Sequence record: PQ615101
Source: Shigella phage SP21535
Length of the DNA stretch: 64,000 nt
Strand: one strand, 5' to 3'
Shown here: piece by piece, positions 4,558 to 60,363 of the stretch
Numbering within the stretch: the stretch's first letter is position 1
Layout of the letters: each line of letters begins with the position of its first letter
Made by a program: the position numbers and the translations under genes
Notes under the pieces: generated by a model
The model's input: only the letters and a program-made list of their open reading frames with translations
Told to the model about the DNA's origin: nothing
Databases searched by the model: none

Positions 4558-6236
4558 AGAATTTTAAACTTAATAGAGTAAAATATAAAAATATAATGTC
4601 AGTTGGTCAAAATGGGATTGACATTCAATTAGATAAGGTTCAAAAAACTCTTATTACTGGACGAAATGGCGGTGGTAAGTCTACTATGTTAGAAGCCATC
4701 ACATTCGGGCTTTTTGGCAAGCCATTCCGTGATGTAAAGAAAGGTCAATTAATAAACAGCACAAATAAGAAAGAACTTTTAGTTGAACTGTGGATGGAAT
4801 ATGATGAGAAAAAGTACTATATCAAAAGAGGACAAAAACCAAACGTTTTCGAAATCACCGTTAACGGTACACGTCTTAATGAATCTGCCAGCAGTAAAGA
4901 TTTCCAAGCAGAATTTGAACAGCTTATCGGAATGTCATATGCCAGTTTCAAGCAGATTGTTGTCCTTGGTACAGCAGGGTATACCCCTTTCATGGGCCTG
5001 TCGACCCCTGCGCGAAGAAAGCTTGTGGAAGACCTGCTCGAAGTAGGAACATTAGCTGAAATGGATAAGCTTAATAAAGCACTAATACGTGAATTAAATT
5101 CGCAGAACCAAGTGCTTGATGTTAAAAAAGATAGTATTATCCAACAAATTAAAATATATAATGATAACGTTGAACGCCAGAAAAAATTAACTGGTGACAA
5201 CCTTACTCGTCTACAAAATATGTATGATGATTTGGCAAAAGAAGCTAGAACGCTAAAATCGGAAATAGAAGAAGCTAATGAAAGATTAGTTAATATTGTT
5301 TTAGACGAAGACCCGACTGATGCATTTAATAAAATCGGTCAAGAAGCAGTTTTAATTAAATCAAAAATTGACTCGTATAATAAAGTCATTAATATGTATC
5401 ACGAAGGTGGATTATGTCCAACCTGCTTGTCACAATTAAGTTCCGGTGATAAAGTTGTTTCTAAAATTAAAGATAAAGTTTCTGAATGTACGCATTCGTT
5501 TGAACAGCTTTCAACACATCGTGATAATTTAAAAGTTCTTGTTGATGAATACCGAGATAATATTAAAACCCAACAGTCGTTGGCAAATGATATTCGCAAT
5601 AAAAAGCAATCTCTAATCACGACGGTAGATAAAGCCAAAAAAGTTAAAGCAGCTATAGAAAAAGCATCTTCTGAGTTTATTGACCATGCTGATGAAATAG
5701 CACTGCTTCAAGAAGAACTTGATAAAATTGTTAAGACAAAAACTAATTTAGTAATGGAAAAATACCACCGAGGAATTTTGACTGATATGCTCAAAGATTC
5801 TGGTATTAAAGGTGCTATTATTAAAAAGTACATTCCATTATTTAATAAGCAGATTAACCATTATCTTAAAATAATGGAAGCGGATTATGTGTTTACATTA
5901 GATGAAGAATTTAATGAGACAATTAAATCCCGTGGTCGTGAAGATTTTAGTTATGCTTCATTTAGTGAAGGTGAAAAAGCACGAATTGATATTGCTCTTT
6001 TATTTACTTGGCGTGATATTGCTTCTATCGTATCTGGTGTTAGTATTAGTACATTAATTCTTGATGAAGTGTTTGATGGGTCATTTGATGCCGAAGGTAT
6101 TAAAGGCGTAGCTAATATTATAAATTCAATGAAAAATACTAATGTTTTTATAATTTCGCATAAAGACCATGACCCGCAAGAATATGGTCAGCATCTTCAA
6201 ATGAAGAAAGTTGGTCGGTTTACTGTAATGGTTTAA
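4554..6236 (+). CDS. 46: recombination endonuclease subunit gp46 (Rad50/SbcC-like ATPase)
   Basis: 560 aa; Walker A GRNGGGKST at N-terminus, coiled-coil middle, zinc hook CPTC, signature/Walker B at C-terminus. Confidence 0.9.
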   Translation: MKNFKLNRVKYKNIMSVGQNGIDIQLDKVQKTLITGRNGGGKSTMLEAITFGLFGKPFRDVKKGQLINSTNKKELLVELWMEYDEKKYYIKRGQKPNVFEITVNGTRLNESASSKDFQAEFEQLIGMSYASFKQIVVLGTAGYTPFMGLSTPARRKLVEDLLEVGTLAEMDKLNKALIRELNSQNQVLDVKKDSIIQQIKIYNDNVERQKKLTGDNLTRLQNMYDDLAKEARTLKSEIEEANERLVNIVLDEDPTDAFNKIGQEAVLIKSKIDSYNKVINMYHEGGLCPTCLSQLSSGDKVVSKIKDKVSECTHSFEQLSTHRDNLKVLVDEYRDNIKTQQSLANDIRNKKQSLITTVDKAKKVKAAIEKASSEFIDHADEIALLQEELDKIVKTKTNLVMEKYHRGILTDMLKDSGIKGAIIKKYIPLFNKQINHYLKIMEADYVFTLDEEFNETIKSRGREDFSYASFSEGEKARIDIALLFTWRDIASIVSGVSISTLILDEVFDGSFDAEGIKGVANIINSMKNTNVFIISHKDHDPQEYGQHLQMKKVGRFTVMV

Positions 6237-14973: not shown

Positions 14974-15903
14974 ATGTCTATTGCAGATTTAAAATCCCGT
15001 TTGATTAAAGCTTCCACTTCTAAAATGACTGCTGAACTGACTACATCTAAATTCTTTAATGAAAAGGATGTAATCCGTACAAAAATCCCAATGCTTAATA
15101 TCGCTATTTCTGGCGCGATTGATGGCGGCATGCAGTCTGGTTTAACTATTTTCGCAGGGCCTTCTAAACACTTTAAATCAAATATGTCTTTGACTATGGT
15201 TGCGGCATATTTAAACAAATATCATGACGCAGTTTGTCTATTCTATGATAGCGAATTTGGTATTACTCCAGCTTATTTGCGATCCATGGGAGTTGACCCG
15301 GAACGAGTAATTCATACGCCAATTCAGTCAGTTGAACAGCTGAAAATTGATATGGTGAACCAGCTTGAAGCTATTGAGCGTGGTGAAAAGGTTATTGTAT
15401 TCATCGACTCAATCGGTAATATGGCTTCTAAGAAAGAAACGGAAGATGCCTTGAATGAAAAATCTGTGGCAGATATGACTCGTGCTAAATCACTGAAGTC
15501 ATTATTCCGTATTGTTACTCCTTATTTTAGCATTAAAAATATTCCATGTGTTGCGGTTAACCATACAATTGAAACAATTGAACTGTTTAGTAAAACCGTG
15601 ATGACAGGTGGTTGTGTTATTGCTGGTACTAAAATCCAGATGTCCGATGGTTCTACTAAAGCAGTTGAAGATATTCGTCCAGGTGAGCGTGTTAAAACCA
15701 TGGTCGGTGATAATGAAGTAACTTATGTTTGGGACCCCGAAACTCTGGCTGAAGGTACTCCTGAATGTTTCGAAATTGAATTCGAAGACGGTTATAAAGT
15801 AACTACTTCAGATACTCACAAGTTCCTGGTAATGGTTAAAGACATTCCAACTTGGGTTGAAGCTAAAGATTTAGTAGCTGGAATGGATTGTGTTGTAAGG
15901 TAA
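14974..15903 (+). CDS. uvsX: UvsX recombinase N-terminal fragment (aa 1-213) fused to N-terminal split-intein half (96 aa)
   Basis: N-part matches T4 UvsX through ...FSKTVMTGG, then CVIAGTKIQMSDGS... (intein block A) and TTSDTHKF (block B), then stop. Confidence 0.85.
   Translation: MSIADLKSRLIKASTSKMTAELTTSKFFNEKDVIRTKIPMLNIAISGAIDGGMQSGLTIFAGPSKHFKSNMSLTMVAAYLNKYHDAVCLFYDSEFGITPAYLRSMGVDPERVIHTPIQSVEQLKIDMVNQLEAIERGEKVIVFIDSIGNMASKKETEDALNEKSVADMTRAKSLKSLFRIVTPYFSIKNIPCVAVNHTIETIELFSKTVMTGGCVIAGTKIQMSDGSTKAVEDIRPGERVKTMVGDNEVTYVWDPETLAEGTPECFEIEFEDGYKVTTSDTHKFLVMVKDIPTWVEAKDLVAGMDCVVR
15613..15900 (+). other. N-intein half (Hint domain N-terminal splicing region)
   Basis: Begins with Cys right after the UvsX sequence breaks off; blocks A and B present. 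Confidence 0.8.
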
Positions 15904-15907
15904 TAAA

Positions 15908-15947
15908 TATGGGTACCGGACTAATGTATATTTTTGAGGTACCCATA
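15908..15947 (+). promoter_or_regulatory. hairpin occluding RBS/start codon of the homing endonuclease gene
   Basis: Perfect 10-bp inverted repeat TATGGGTACC / GGTACCCATA with 20-nt loop; right arm covers GAGG and first base of the ATG. Confidence 0.5.
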
Positions 15948-16669
15948 TGAATTTTGTCTATAAAATTGTGTTCAACGATAGAATTAAAAACGGCACTCCG
16001 CCATATTACTACATAGGGAGCAAGACAAATGCTTCTTATGTAGATGGTAAGATTATTGACGCCCACGGTCGTGAGTACTATGGCTCATCGAGATATCCCG
16101 GATATCATGATTTTATCAATAATGTTACTGTTGAAATATTGGAGCAATATGATGATATTAAACACACTAAACTGCTAGAGCGCGAAAATTTCTATCAGAA
16201 ACAAGTAAATGTTAAAACAAATCCAGATTATTTTAATTTAGATTATGCTTGTGGGCATAATTCATATGCTAATGCTGATTTTGCATCATACAAGCATTAT
16301 ATAACAGGTAAATGTATTCGTCTTGAAAGAAACCATCCGCTTGTTAAATCTGGTGTGTATGTTGGCGTCACAAAAGGCGTGAAATCTTCTGATGAACACC
16401 GCAAGCACATATCAGAAGGTATTACCGGAGAAAACAATGGGTTCTATGGTAAGAAACACACTAAAGAAACAATTAATAAAATATCAGAAAAAGCAAAGAA
16501 AAGATTAAAGCATTCCCATCCTAGACAAAAAGGTGTTATCATAAACGGTATTGAATACCGGGGCGTCAGACCTGCTGCAAGAGCGTTGGGAATTAATCCT
16601 AACACAATTATCAACAAAATTAAAGCTAATATAAAAGGATGGGCTTATGCAGTAGATGCACGCGGTTAA
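15947..16669 (+). CDS. GIY-YIG homing endonuclease, I-TevI-like
   Basis: VYKIVF...YYIGSK (GIY-YIG), ERENFYQKQVN (compare I-TevI ERENFWIKELN), GENNGFYGKKHT NUMOD-like, C-terminal HTH-like tail. Confidence 0.85.
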   Translation: MNFVYKIVFNDRIKNGTPPYYYIGSKTNASYVDGKIIDAHGREYYGSSRYPGYHDFINNVTVEILEQYDDIKHTKLLERENFYQKQVNVKTNPDYFNLDYACGHNSYANADFASYKHYITGKCIRLERNHPLVKSGVYVGVTKGVKSSDEHRKHISEGITGENNGFYGKKHTKETINKISEKAKKRLKHSHPRQKGVIINGIEYRGVRPAARALGINPNTIINKIKANIKGWAYAVDARG

Positions 16670-16717
16670 GGCATTCGAAGATATGGTAAAAGAATTTGGA
16701 ATGAACATGACAATCAA

Positions 16718-16745
16718 GATTATGCTTTCATGAAATATGTATATT
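16718..16745 (+). promoter_or_regulatory. candidate MotA-dependent middle promoter for the uvsX C-terminal fragment
   Basis: tatGCTTtcA followed by TATATT at appropriate spacing. Confidence 0.35.
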
Positions 16746-16777
16746 GAAACTAGCTACTACGAAACACAAGGTAAAGT

Positions 16778-16882
16778 ATGAAAATTAAATCTGTTAAATC
16801 TGTTGGTAAAAAAGAAGTCTATGATTTGTCTGTTGCTGACGTCGAGCATTATGTTTTAGAAAATGGTATCGTTACACACAAC
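16778..16882 (+). other. C-intein half
   Basis: Block F/G consensus VYDLxV...H..ENGIVTHN, next residue Thr. Confidence 0.8.
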
Positions 16883-17425
16883 ACAGGCGTAATGTATTCG
16901 GCTGATACTGTATTCATTATCGGTAAGCGCCAGATTAAAGATGGTTCTGATCTTCAGGGGTATCAATTTGTTCTAAATGTAGAAAAATCTCGTACCGTTA
17001 AAGAAAAAAGTAAATTCTTTATTGATGTTAAATTTGACGGTGGCATCGATCCTTATTCTGGATTGTTAGATATGGCTCTTGAATTAGGATTTGTGGTAAA
17101 ACCTAAAAATGGCTGGTATGCTCGTGAATTTCTTGACGAAGAAACAGGCGAGATGATTCGCGAAGAAAAATCTTGGCGTGCAAAAGATACCAACTGCACT
17201 ACATTCTGGGGTCCTTTATTTAAGCATCAGCCATTCCGAGATGCTATTAAACGTGCTTATCAGTTAGGTGCTATTGATAGTAATGAAATTGTTGAAGCTG
17301 AAGTTGATGAATTAATTAACTCAAAGGTTGAAAAATTTAAATCTCCAGAAAGTAAAAGTAAATCAGCAGCTGATTTAGAAACTGACCTAGATCAGTTAAG
17401 TGATATGGAAGAATTTAATGAATAA
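16778..17425 (+). CDS. uvsX: C-terminal split-intein half (35 aa) fused to UvsX C-terminal fragment
   Basis: MKIKSVKSVGKKEVYDLSVADVEHYVLENGIVTHN (blocks F/G ending HN) followed by +1 Thr and TGVMYSADTVFIIGKRQ... matching the UvsX C-terminal region. Confidence 0.85.
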   Translation: MKIKSVKSVGKKEVYDLSVADVEHYVLENGIVTHNTGVMYSADTVFIIGKRQIKDGSDLQGYQFVLNVEKSRTVKEKSKFFIDVKFDGGIDPYSGLLDMALELGFVVKPKNGWYAREFLDEETGEMIREEKSWRAKDTNCTTFWGPLFKHQPFRDAIKRAYQLGAIDSNEIVEAEVDELINSKVEKFKSPESKSKSAADLETDLDQLSDMEEFNE

Positions 17426-20591: not shown

Positions 20592-21620
20592 ATGTCATCA
20601 ATACCTTGGATTGATAATGAGTTTGCATATCGTGCGCTAGCTCATTTACCTAAATTCACACAAGTAAATAATAGTTCAACTTTTAAATTACGGTTTAGAT
20701 GCCCTGTTTGTGGAGATTCAAAAACCGATCAAAATAAAGCCCGTGGATGGTATTATGGTGATAACAATGAAGGAAATATTCATTGTTATAACTGTAACTA
20801 TCATGCACCAATCGGAATATATCTAAAGGAGTTTGAACCTGATTTATATCGTGAGTATATCTTTGAAATAAGAAAAGAAAAAGGTAAAAGTCGTCCAGTA
20901 GAAAAACCTAAAGAACTTCCTAAACAACCTGAGAAGAAAATAATTAAATCTCTTCCGTCATGTGTTAGATTAGATAAACTGGCGGAAGACCATCCAATTA
21001 TAAAATATGTAAAAGCTCGTTGTATTCCAAAGGATAAATGGAAATATCTTTGGTTTACAACCGAATGGCCTAAATTGGTTAATAGCATAGTACCGGGAAC
21101 ATATAAAAAGGAAATTTCTGAGCCTCGTCTTGTTATTCCAATTTATAATGCTAATGGAAAGGCTGAGTCTTTTCAAGGACGCGCATTAAAGAAAGATGCT
21201 CCACAAAAGTATATCACCATCAAAGCTTATCCTGAGGCAACAAAAATCTATGGAGTCGAACGAGTTAAAGATGGTGATGTATATGTTCTAGAAGGACCTA
21301 TAGATTCACTTTTTATTGAAAATGGTATAGCCATTACGGGTGGTCAATTAGACCTAGAAGTTGTTCCATTTAAAGATAGACGAGTGTGGGTCTTAGATAA
21401 TGAACCTCGTCACCCTGACACTATTAAACGAATGACTAAATTAGTTGATGCAGGAGAAAGGGTTATGTTTTGGGATAAATCTCCCTGGAAATCAAAAGAT
21501 GTTAATGATATGATTAGAAAGGAAGGTGCAACCCCTGAACAAATTATGGAATATATGAAAAATAATATTGCCCAGGGGTTAATGGCTAAAATGCGGTTAT
21601 CTAAATATGCTAAGATTTAA
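20592..21620 (+). CDS. 61: DNA primase gp61
   Basis: 342 aa; zinc ribbon CPVCGDS...CYNCNYH; Toprim-like C-terminal region. Confidence 0.9.
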   Translation: MSSIPWIDNEFAYRALAHLPKFTQVNNSSTFKLRFRCPVCGDSKTDQNKARGWYYGDNNEGNIHCYNCNYHAPIGIYLKEFEPDLYREYIFEIRKEKGKSRPVEKPKELPKQPEKKIIKSLPSCVRLDKLAEDHPIIKYVKARCIPKDKWKYLWFTTEWPKLVNSIVPGTYKKEISEPRLVIPIYNANGKAESFQGRALKKDAPQKYITIKAYPEATKIYGVERVKDGDVYVLEGPIDSLFIENGIAITGGQLDLEVVPFKDRRVWVLDNEPRHPDTIKRMTKLVDAGERVMFWDKSPWKSKDVNDMIRKEGATPEQIMEYMKNNIAQGLMAKMRLSKYAKI

Positions 21621-21907: not shown

Positions 21908-23247
<1,340 letters not shown>

Positions 23248-24196: not shown

Positions 24197-24204
24197 TATA
24201 AATA
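24197..24204 (+). promoter_or_regulatory. late promoter (TATAAATA) for soc
   Basis: Exact TATAAATA about 30 nt upstream of soc ATG, followed by AAAGGAG. Confidence 0.7.
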
Positions 24205-28006: not shown

Positions 28007-28753
28007 ATGAAACTGTCTAATAATCAAATTCGTAAAATTACACGTCGTCTAGAGCATACTCAGGCATCGGCTAAAAGACGTTCTAAAGATTTTAACTTAG
28101 ACTTCAATTACATTAAGAACATTTTAGATCAGAAAGTTTGCGCTTACTCGGGAGAACCTTTTGATAATCGTATTGAAGGAGAGAAATTATCATTAGAACG
28201 TTTTGATAATAACGTTGGATACATTAAAGGGAATGTTATTGCAGTAAAGAAAAAGTATAATACATTTCGTTCTGATTATACTTTAGAAGAGTTGATTGAA
28301 AAGCGTGATTTATTTGCTTTGCGAATTGGTCGTTCATCTGCGAAAAAAGTTCATAAACTAAATTTAGATGAAAAGAAATGGGCTAAAATCAAAAAGACTT
28401 ATAATCAAATTAAAGCTATACAGAAAAAACGTGAAAACCGAATTGAGCACATTTCTCAGCTTTCTAAATCAAAACAAACTTCTGACGTTAAGCTAACGAT
28501 TATAGCACTCAAAGCTCGTATTGATGGTTCTCGTATAGCAGAAGGCGCTGAAGTTGTTAAATTGAACGTTCTTCTTAAAGGCTCGGATTGGAAAACTGTG
28601 AAAAAGTTGTCAGAAGCAGAAATGCAATATGATATGTGTGATAAAATTATTCAAGGTGTAGAGCGGTATCAAAACTTGTCTTTTATTGATAAACTTAAAC
28701 TGAAAAGAGGATACCCGCTAAATTGTTCAATTTTTAAACTTATCCGAGGATAA
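28007..28753 (+). CDS. hypothetical basic protein (Srd-like position)
   Basis: 248 aa, Lys/Arg-rich; sits where srd lies in T4; sequence identity not verified. Confidence 0.4.
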   Translation: MKLSNNQIRKITRRLEHTQASAKRRSKDFNLDFNYIKNILDQKVCAYSGEPFDNRIEGEKLSLERFDNNVGYIKGNVIAVKKKYNTFRSDYTLEELIEKRDLFALRIGRSSAKKVHKLNLDEKKWAKIKKTYNQIKAIQKKRENRIEHISQLSKSKQTSDVKLTIIALKARIDGSRIAEGAEVVKLNVLLKGSDWKTVKKLSEAEMQYDMCDKIIQGVERYQNLSFIDKLKLKRGYPLNCSIFKLIRG

Positions 28754-33250: not shown

Positions 33251-33422
33251 AGTTTAAAATTTTTTCATAAAACTATATACATCAGTAGTTGATTATGGTA
33301 CTATATCAATATCAACTACTGATACAGAAAACAACTTGGAGAATAAAATGGATAATTCGTTAAAGGTGCTGATACTCTTCTGAAACGCATCGCTCCAATG
33401 TTCAATTAATGAGGAAATTGTA

Positions 33423-60355: not shown

Positions 60356-60363
60356 TATAAATA
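60356..60363 (+). promoter_or_regulatory. candidate late promoter upstream of gene 32
   Basis: Exact TATAAATA about 85 nt upstream of gene 32 ATG. Confidence 0.45.

Follow-up and report, generated by a model that had tools for sequence, protein, structure and literature searches.

The hairpin/late-promoter switch of T4-type phages is established for gene e and for I-TevI, has been tested for mobE of phage Aeh1 and is implicated for segB, soc and 49 (PMC2988022, PMC3014915). In the fractured genes described from marine metagenomes, a hairpin was found in the 5' untranslated region (UTR) of the endonuclease in 15 of 16 cases, and the T4 late-promoter word TATAAATA in 10 (PMC2677866). Here, we examined a 64,000-nucleotide stretch of Shigella phage SP21535 (sequence record PQ615101; hereafter the window, numbered from its first letter), a Tequatrovirus sequence whose closest match is phage BYEP01 (98.8% identity). 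In this window the recombinase gene uvsX is interrupted by a split intein; a free-standing homing endonuclease gene lies between the intein's two halves, and a perfect hairpin covers the start of this gene. We consider it probable that this stem restrains translation of the endonuclease on read-through RNA and that a late promoter in the stem releases it. That the stem is a selected element lowering initiation is more certain than the full model; the late-promoter step, which would depend on a variant promoter word, is less certain than the full model. The case is a new example of the textbook T4-type late-translation switch and not a new mechanism.

The locus shares parts of its organization with each of the described systems. 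I-TevI, of the T4 td intron, has in common with it the type of DNA-binding domain, a gene embedded in an early/middle gene, and a stem over the Shine-Dalgarno (SD) sequence and AUG combined with a late-promoter word placed so that a late RNA would be without the 5' arm (Gott et al. 1988; Gibb & Edgell 2010; reviewed in PMC2988022 and PMC3014915). A homing-site-like sequence lies over the I-TevI promoter, and possibly over that of the window. The two differ in their host element, which is a group I intron for I-TevI and a split intein in a protein-coding gene for the window, so that the rationale shown for I-TevI, the shielding of intron folding from ribosomes, is inapplicable here; the promoter word of the window, AATAAATA, differs as well. 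In Aeh1, as in the window, a free-standing endonuclease, mobE, fractures an essential DNA-metabolism gene (nrdA), a hairpin hides the site of ribosome binding (RBS) and a late promoter, putative in the window, lies upstream (Gibb & Edgell 2007, 2009, cited in PMC2988022). However, mobE encodes an HNH enzyme, unlike that of the window, the nrdA halves reassemble without an intein, and the Aeh1 late consensus is CTAAATA. The fractured genes of Dassa et al. (2009) have the same layout of N-extein plus N-intein, endonuclease, and C-intein plus C-extein, but their hosts are gp41, NrdA, NrdJ, IMPDH, DnaE, ligase and terminase, with uvsX merely a neighbouring gene, and the loci come from uncultured cyanophage-like contigs, whereas those considered here belong to cultured enterobacterial Straboviridae (PMC2677866). 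Finally, T4 e (lysozyme) and soc are late genes within early transcription units, as the endonuclease gene of the window would be; in both, a stem prevents initiation on long RNAs and the late transcripts begin inside it (PMC3014915). Unlike the gene of the window, which belongs to a mobile element, e and soc are ordinary genes of the phage.

The initiation region of the endonuclease gene is composed of the following features.

15902..15909, + strand: AATAAATA, matching the T4 late promoter TATAAATA (-13 to -6) at 7 of 8 positions, with the predicted +1 at about 15915
15907..15917, + strand: 5' arm of the hairpin, ATATGGGTACC
15918..15937, + strand: loop of the hairpin, 20 nt, GGACTAATGTATATTTTTGA
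15936..15939, + strand: SD sequence GAGG, 7 nt 5' of the ATG, with G15938 and G15939 paired in the stem
15938..15948, + strand: 3' arm of the hairpin, GGTACCCATAT, whose last bases are the AU of the start codon
15947..16669, + strand: free-standing homing endonuclease, 240 aa, with a SegG-like N-terminal nuclease domain, NUMOD3 and an I-TevI-like C-terminal DNA-binding domain

The first-pass annotation of this DNA had reported a perfect 10-bp hairpin at the endonuclease start, and the two segments, TATGGGTACC (15908-15917) and GGTACCCATA (15938-15947), are indeed exact reverse complements; an extra pair, A15907-U15948, extends the stem to 11 bp, with a loop of 20 nt. The same annotation had the 3' arm covering the GAGG and the first base of the ATG. 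The start-codon base is paired, as is the U when the eleventh pair is counted, but of the GAGG only the last two G are in the stem; the 3' arm thus pairs these two bases, all 7 nt of the spacer, and the AU of the start codon (ATG at 15947). A U4 run follows 3' of the stem. The hairpin alone has a folding energy of -16.9 kcal/mol, and in a local RNA fold the 11-bp hairpin forms the core of both the minimum free energy and the centroid structure.

The predicted cost of opening the initiation region (-13 to +2) was 14.1 kcal/mol on a read-through RNA with 150 nt of upstream sequence, versus 2.4 kcal/mol on an RNA beginning at 15915. The same contrast was obtained for RPN226, CF-SP2, Pm5461, L051, L052, L054 and PspYZU05. 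Since the window and BYEP01 are out of register beyond about 19 kb, gene starts were mapped by sequence; among the 65 mapped in the window, for which the median opening energy is 4.6 kcal/mol, the endonuclease start ranks fourth, and the three starts with higher values each lie just 3' of a T4-type early promoter. Pairing of the SD region is as tight as at the endonuclease start at the gene starts 41240, 31631, 26669 and 21908, which need 12-16 kcal/mol to open. The partner of the SD at each of these four is sequence within the -35 region of a T4-type early promoter (GTTGTTTAC...) or just past it; read-through RNA would accordingly keep the site closed and RNA begun at the proximal promoter would leave it open, so that early promoters would follow the logic proposed for the endonuclease.

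Comparison with related phages shows how the stem has been maintained. Copies of the stem region in Tequatrovirus are near-identical; in the most diverged of them, RPN226, G15913-C15942 is replaced by A-U, with both sides changed. More distant copies of the endonuclease (62-69% protein identity) lie in the same split uvsX of other genera, namely in Bragavirus Pm5461, in Gelderlandvirus SEA1 and CF-SP2, in Karamvirus UFV01 and EnC07, and in Klebsiella phage Lion_ER11, and all of them carry the stem at the equivalent place. A scan of IMG/VR with a single endonuclease protein gave mostly NUMOD3-only matches, and Pm5461 was the only copy gained. The two arms, 5' and 3', read as follows in the diverged copies.

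RPN226 and the CF-SP2 group: ATATGGATACC and GGTATCCATAT
Pm5461: ATAGATACC and GGTATCTAT
SEA1: GCGGATAC and GTATCCGC

In Pm5461 the pairing is kept, a 2-nt deletion in the 3' arm being matched by substitutions in the 5' arm. When five distinct diverged copies (the window, RPN226, the CF-SP2 group, Pm5461 and SEA1) were given to RNAalifold, the consensus helix had 10 pairs, 4 of which show compensatory double changes. The 5' half of the loop is conserved within the clade and the 3' half varies in length and sequence; loop conservation, at 8-10 of 12, is slightly over the coding background. Moreover, analogous stems occur in unrelated 5' UTRs of the same locus in independent lineages. Together, these comparisons show that the helix is under selection for pairing. 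The stem over the SD and AUG and its compensatory changes also lend support to the proposal, already made in the first-pass annotation, that the structure restrains endonuclease translation as in I-TevI.

Regarding the late promoter, AATAAATA overlaps the base of the 5' arm, and the predicted +1 is inside this arm, which would leave 3 nt of it on the transcript. Many T4-like phages have either A or T at position -13 of the late promoter (PMC1524935). Counting both strands of the window, AATAAATA is depleted (5 observed vs 14 expected), and so is TATAAATA (4 observed vs 10.3 expected); the placement of AATAAATA at the stem is therefore unlikely to be accidental. On the + strand, TATAAATA at 24197 precedes soc (ATG 24237) and at 60356 precedes gene 32 (ATG 60428). 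The strongest support comes from independent lineages of the same locus, because their UTRs cannot be aligned with that of the window. The arrangements found there are listed below.

Metagenomic locus L051: TATAAATA adjoins the stem; 3' arm TAGGAGTTA
L053/L054: a 14-bp stem that ends at the ATG, its 5' arm overlapped by TATAAATA
Pseudomonas phage PspYZU05: TATAAATA within the stem, which ends at GGAG
Proteus phage PM2: GCTCCGAT-ATAAATA...ATCGGAGC
Yersinia phage TG1: a 10-bp stem adjoining the ATG, with TATAAATA in its loop
L052: AATAAATA in the loop

The predicted +1 falls within the hairpin in every one of these, and an exact TATAAATA overlapping or adjoining the 5' arm, together with an SD in the 3' arm, is present in L051, L054, PspYZU05, PM2 and TG1.

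Taking into consideration these observations, we propose the following sequence of events. Both halves of uvsX would need early/middle transcripts that run through the endonuclease gene, and such read-through RNA must exist because the C-terminal part of uvsX (uvsX-C) is downstream. The N-terminal part (uvsX-N), the endonuclease gene, uvsX-C, 40 and 41 are on one strand, and no terminator was called; the endonuclease gene is thus likely to be inside an early/middle transcription unit whose read-through RNA carries both arms. On this RNA the stem would lock part of the SD, the spacer and the AUG, and, judging from structure and energetics, 30S subunits would rarely initiate. A late promoter of the gp55 type, the variant AATAAATA at the 5' edge of the stem, would start a late RNA at about 15915. 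Without the 5' arm the site would be open and the endonuclease would be made late, as suggested by the position of the motif and by the homologous loci.

Several observations weigh against this model. In the 120 nt 5' of late genes of BYEP01, TATAAATA occurs 11 times and AATAAATA once (before gp15), and AATAAATA is non-consensus for Tequatrovirus, so that its late-promoter activity may be weak or absent. Clade relatives carry GATAAATA, ATTAAATA or AATAAATG at the promoter position, which could indicate promoter decay, and the tandem TAA TAA stops, along with the A/T-rich base of the stem, impose part of AATAAATA. The uvsX-N stop is just 4 nt 5' of the stem; terminating ribosomes should therefore melt the base, and repression could leak. 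Among the related loci, SEA1 (L009 1441-1503) keeps the stem, with two compensatory pair changes, 15 nt 5' of the homologous ATG, and neither SEA1 nor EniLVp02, where the stem is too far upstream to matter, shows the contrast in opening energy. In Thanatos-1 and VmeM-32 there is no hairpin and the endonuclease start overlaps the uvsX-N stop; restraint is therefore not obligatory at this locus. Lastly, the local fold has a modest z-score of -1.8. Perfect hairpins of at least 10 bp (loops of 3-30 nt) number 6 in the window, vs 3.1 ± 1.9 in dinucleotide shuffles; given this count and the z-score, the palindrome alone is not significant. The inverted repeat by itself is not beyond chance; what is above chance is the position of the stem over the start site and its conservation.

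As to SEA1, its homologous ATG has no SD, and its annotated start is an in-frame ATG just 5' of the stem, with a GAGG 6 nt upstream; with this start, the stem would lie within coding sequence, and initiation would be coupled to the termination of uvsX-N. The window has further perfect inverted repeats (10-13 bp, short loops) at 33281-33323, 5833-5879, 20761-20789, 22490-22516 and 28252-28284, and the longest of these is ATCAGTAGTTGAT / ATCAACTACTGAT, with a 17-nt loop, near an open reading frame (ORF) start at about 33270.

The proximity of the uvsX-N stop raises the question of whether the stem is a valve for translational coupling, in which ribosomes ending at this stop unwind the base and expose the AUG for a short time, so that the endonuclease would be made at a small fixed fraction of UvsX-N during the whole infection, with no need of a late promoter. 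The distance from stop to stem (4 nt here, 4-12 nt in relatives of the clade) agrees with such a role, as do the promoter word, non-consensus for the genus, and the related loci in which stop and start overlap (Thanatos-1, VmeM-32) or in which an in-frame ATG with its own GAGG lies upstream (SEA1). Coupling cannot, however, account for an exact TATAAATA in or at the 5' arm of five independent lineages, and the G+C-rich upper stem, which pairs the SD, is beyond the expected reach of a terminating ribosome, as judged from the footprint sizes of ribosomes. We regard coupling in place of the late switch as unlikely, and the two are not mutually exclusive. Less probable still is that the stem is a chance palindrome or has another RNA role, as a terminator, a stabiliser of the 3' end of the uvsX-N message or a processing site. 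About 3 such perfect hairpins are expected per window and a U4 run does lie 3' of the stem, but against this stand the compensatory changes in 4 pairs and a stem that is in register with the SD and AUG in most lineages; efficient termination would be harmful, since uvsX-C downstream must be transcribed, and there is no GGAG RegB site. An intrinsic terminator was considered and rejected: a terminator scan made no call at the site, the 20-nt loop is too large and the U tract is weak. An Rfam search of 15700-16900 returned only a chance miRNA match (E=0.89).

A further reading, compatible with the stem and late-promoter switch, concerns the DNA of the 5' arm and loop.

15912..15929, no strand assigned: GGTACCGGACTAATGTAT, in agreement at 15/18 positions with the uvsX junction GGT/ACAGGCGTAATGTAT as reconstructed for the uninterrupted gene (the slash marks the junction), p ~0.004

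The hairpin region may be dual, hiding the RBS as RNA and mimicking the homing site as DNA. The endonuclease would bind GGTACCGGACTAATGTAT and repress its own late promoter, making this a putative autorepressing operator, or else the likeness would be the footprint of an invasion of the intein by the endonuclease gene at a target-like sequence. The mimic spans the intein insertion site and keeps the same register in RPN226, Pm5461, UFV01 and EnC07; in UFV01 and EnC07 the 10-mer AATGTACTCA is common to the UTR and to the phage's own junction, and in the distant L054 the 3' arm contains an exact copy of an 11-mer from the junction of that lineage (p ~0.0025). The C-terminal domain of the endonuclease matches the DNA-binding domain of I-TevI (PDB 1i3j), and the I-TevI operator, which overlaps the late promoter of I-TevI, agrees with the homing site of this enzyme at 15/20 positions (PMC2988022). 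The 37 nt 5' of the mimic are without any C, and hence without a CNNNG-type cleavage motif. Nevertheless, the likeness to the junction is absent in L051, L052, PspYZU05, PM2 and TG1, the clade copies share ancestry and count as roughly a single observation, the p-values are modest once multiple testing is allowed for, and the loop is little more conserved than the coding background. For these reasons the operator or footprint is put forward tentatively, as a possibility that we doubt more than we favour.

The endonuclease that would be controlled in this way was identified by homology. With T4 SegG it shares 46% identity over the N-terminal 103 aa (E=1e-19), NUMOD3 scores 40.2 bits (Pfam cutoff 20.4), residues 159-234 match the I-TevI DNA-binding domain (PDB 1i3j, E=2e-4), and the protein matches phrog_7504 and phrog_314, both annotated 'homing endonuclease'. 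VYKI...YYIGS is present in the sequence; membership of the GIY-YIG family rests on the SegG homology, because the Pfam GIY-YIG model is unmatched at E<=0.01 and TIGR01453 gives 53.9, under its cutoff of 56.05. By these matches it is a SegG/I-TevI-like free-standing homing endonuclease, and the first-pass description of the gene as an intein-associated homing endonuclease is borne out by the SegG homology, by NUMOD3 and by its location between N- and C-intein.

The surrounding gene order is 43 - imm - 42 - glucosyltransferase - uvsX - 40 - 41, with uvsX in two ORFs of the same strand, 14974-15903 and 16778-17425, which divide as follows.

14974..15612, + strand: uvsX N-extein, RecA-like core, residues 1-213, ending ...TVMTGG (Pfam RecA)
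15613..15903, + strand: N-intein half, 96 aa, with Cys1 in CVIAGTKIQ... and the TxxH block SDTH (weak sub-threshold Hint, Vint and Intein_splicing matches)
16778..16882, + strand: C-intein half, 35 aa, ...HYVLENGIVTHN (29.9 bits with NCBIfam intein_Cterm, whose cutoff is 15.6; C-terminal end of Pfam Intein_splicing)
16883..17425, + strand: uvsX C-extein, starting TGVMYSAD..., T4_UVSX_C domain (Pfam PF21134, E=1.9e-39), collinear with T2 UvsX

The N-intein region begins at Cys214 of the first ORF, scores 22.4 bits with NCBIfam intein_Nterm (below the cutoff of 24.5) and is 82-100% conserved across 24 phage records. The ORF ends with a TAA at 15901-15903, a second in-frame TAA coming next. Splicing motifs are found at the break (GG/CVIAG..., SDTH, ...VTHN/TG), and when residues 1-213 and the C-extein were joined in silico, the product had the length of T2 UvsX and was identical to it at 391 of 394 positions; the split intein is thus precisely inserted in uvsX. 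Between the intein halves, 3' of the uvsX-N stop, the endonuclease is a separate ORF (15947-16669) with its own SD and ATG.

The insert is present in 8 of 759 related phage records, uvsX being uninterrupted in the other 751. Fractured uvsX with a split intein and a free-standing endonuclease was found in at least eight Straboviridae lineages, and we found no description of fractured uvsX in the literature searched. No version of the uvsX intein without the endonuclease gene, contiguous or empty, was seen among the 24 phage records. The split-intein loci (window 14974-17425, L008, L009, L044-L049, L050-L054 and L070-L073) have a constant insertion site (TGG/C...HN/TG), and fractured uvsX occurs in Tequatrovirus, Bragavirus, Gelderlandvirus, Karamvirus, Tegunavirus and Jiangsuvirus, as well as in Vibrio, Shewanella and Klebsiella phages. 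The intein is 82-92% conserved at the amino acid level, far above the endonuclease (43-69%), and at least four distinct endonuclease C-terminal architectures occupy the same uvsX-intein slot. Between the endonuclease stop and the uvsX-C start, the window has a 108-nt non-coding spacer (16670-16777), which measures 142 nt in HY03, ELT1 and pSe_SNUABM_01 and 38 nt in RPN226; in SEA1 and the CF-SP2 group a 4-nt overlap (ATGA) stands in its place.

BYEP01 (L067-L069), in parts beyond the window or at its edge, is itself rich in homing endonucleases. The annotation splits its nrdA in two, with an ORF in the gap; two helicase (uvsW-like) ORFs flank a NUMOD3 protein, and the terminase large subunit is in two pieces. 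A NUMOD3 gene is also found directly 3' of gene 39; mapping of this start to the window failed, and the window and BYEP01 therefore differ there.

The well-understood rule of T4-type phages by which RBS pairing silences a selfish nuclease on early read-through RNA, and a late promoter in the stem releases it, would thus be extended to another host element, a split intein of the uvsX recombinase. The split intein is also the reason that pipelines annotate uvsX in these genomes as two unrelated genes. The surrounding locus, a split intein plus endonuclease in uvsX of cultured phages, is a more useful by-product than the hairpin. Since these phages, of E. coli, Salmonella, Proteus, Klebsiella and Enterobacter, are in culture, the locus is open to genetic work, and its value is practical and not conceptual: it offers a laboratory system for the expression, trans-splicing and mobilisation of fractured genes known from metagenomes, in which one may ask whether the timing of the endonuclease matters when there is no intron to fold.

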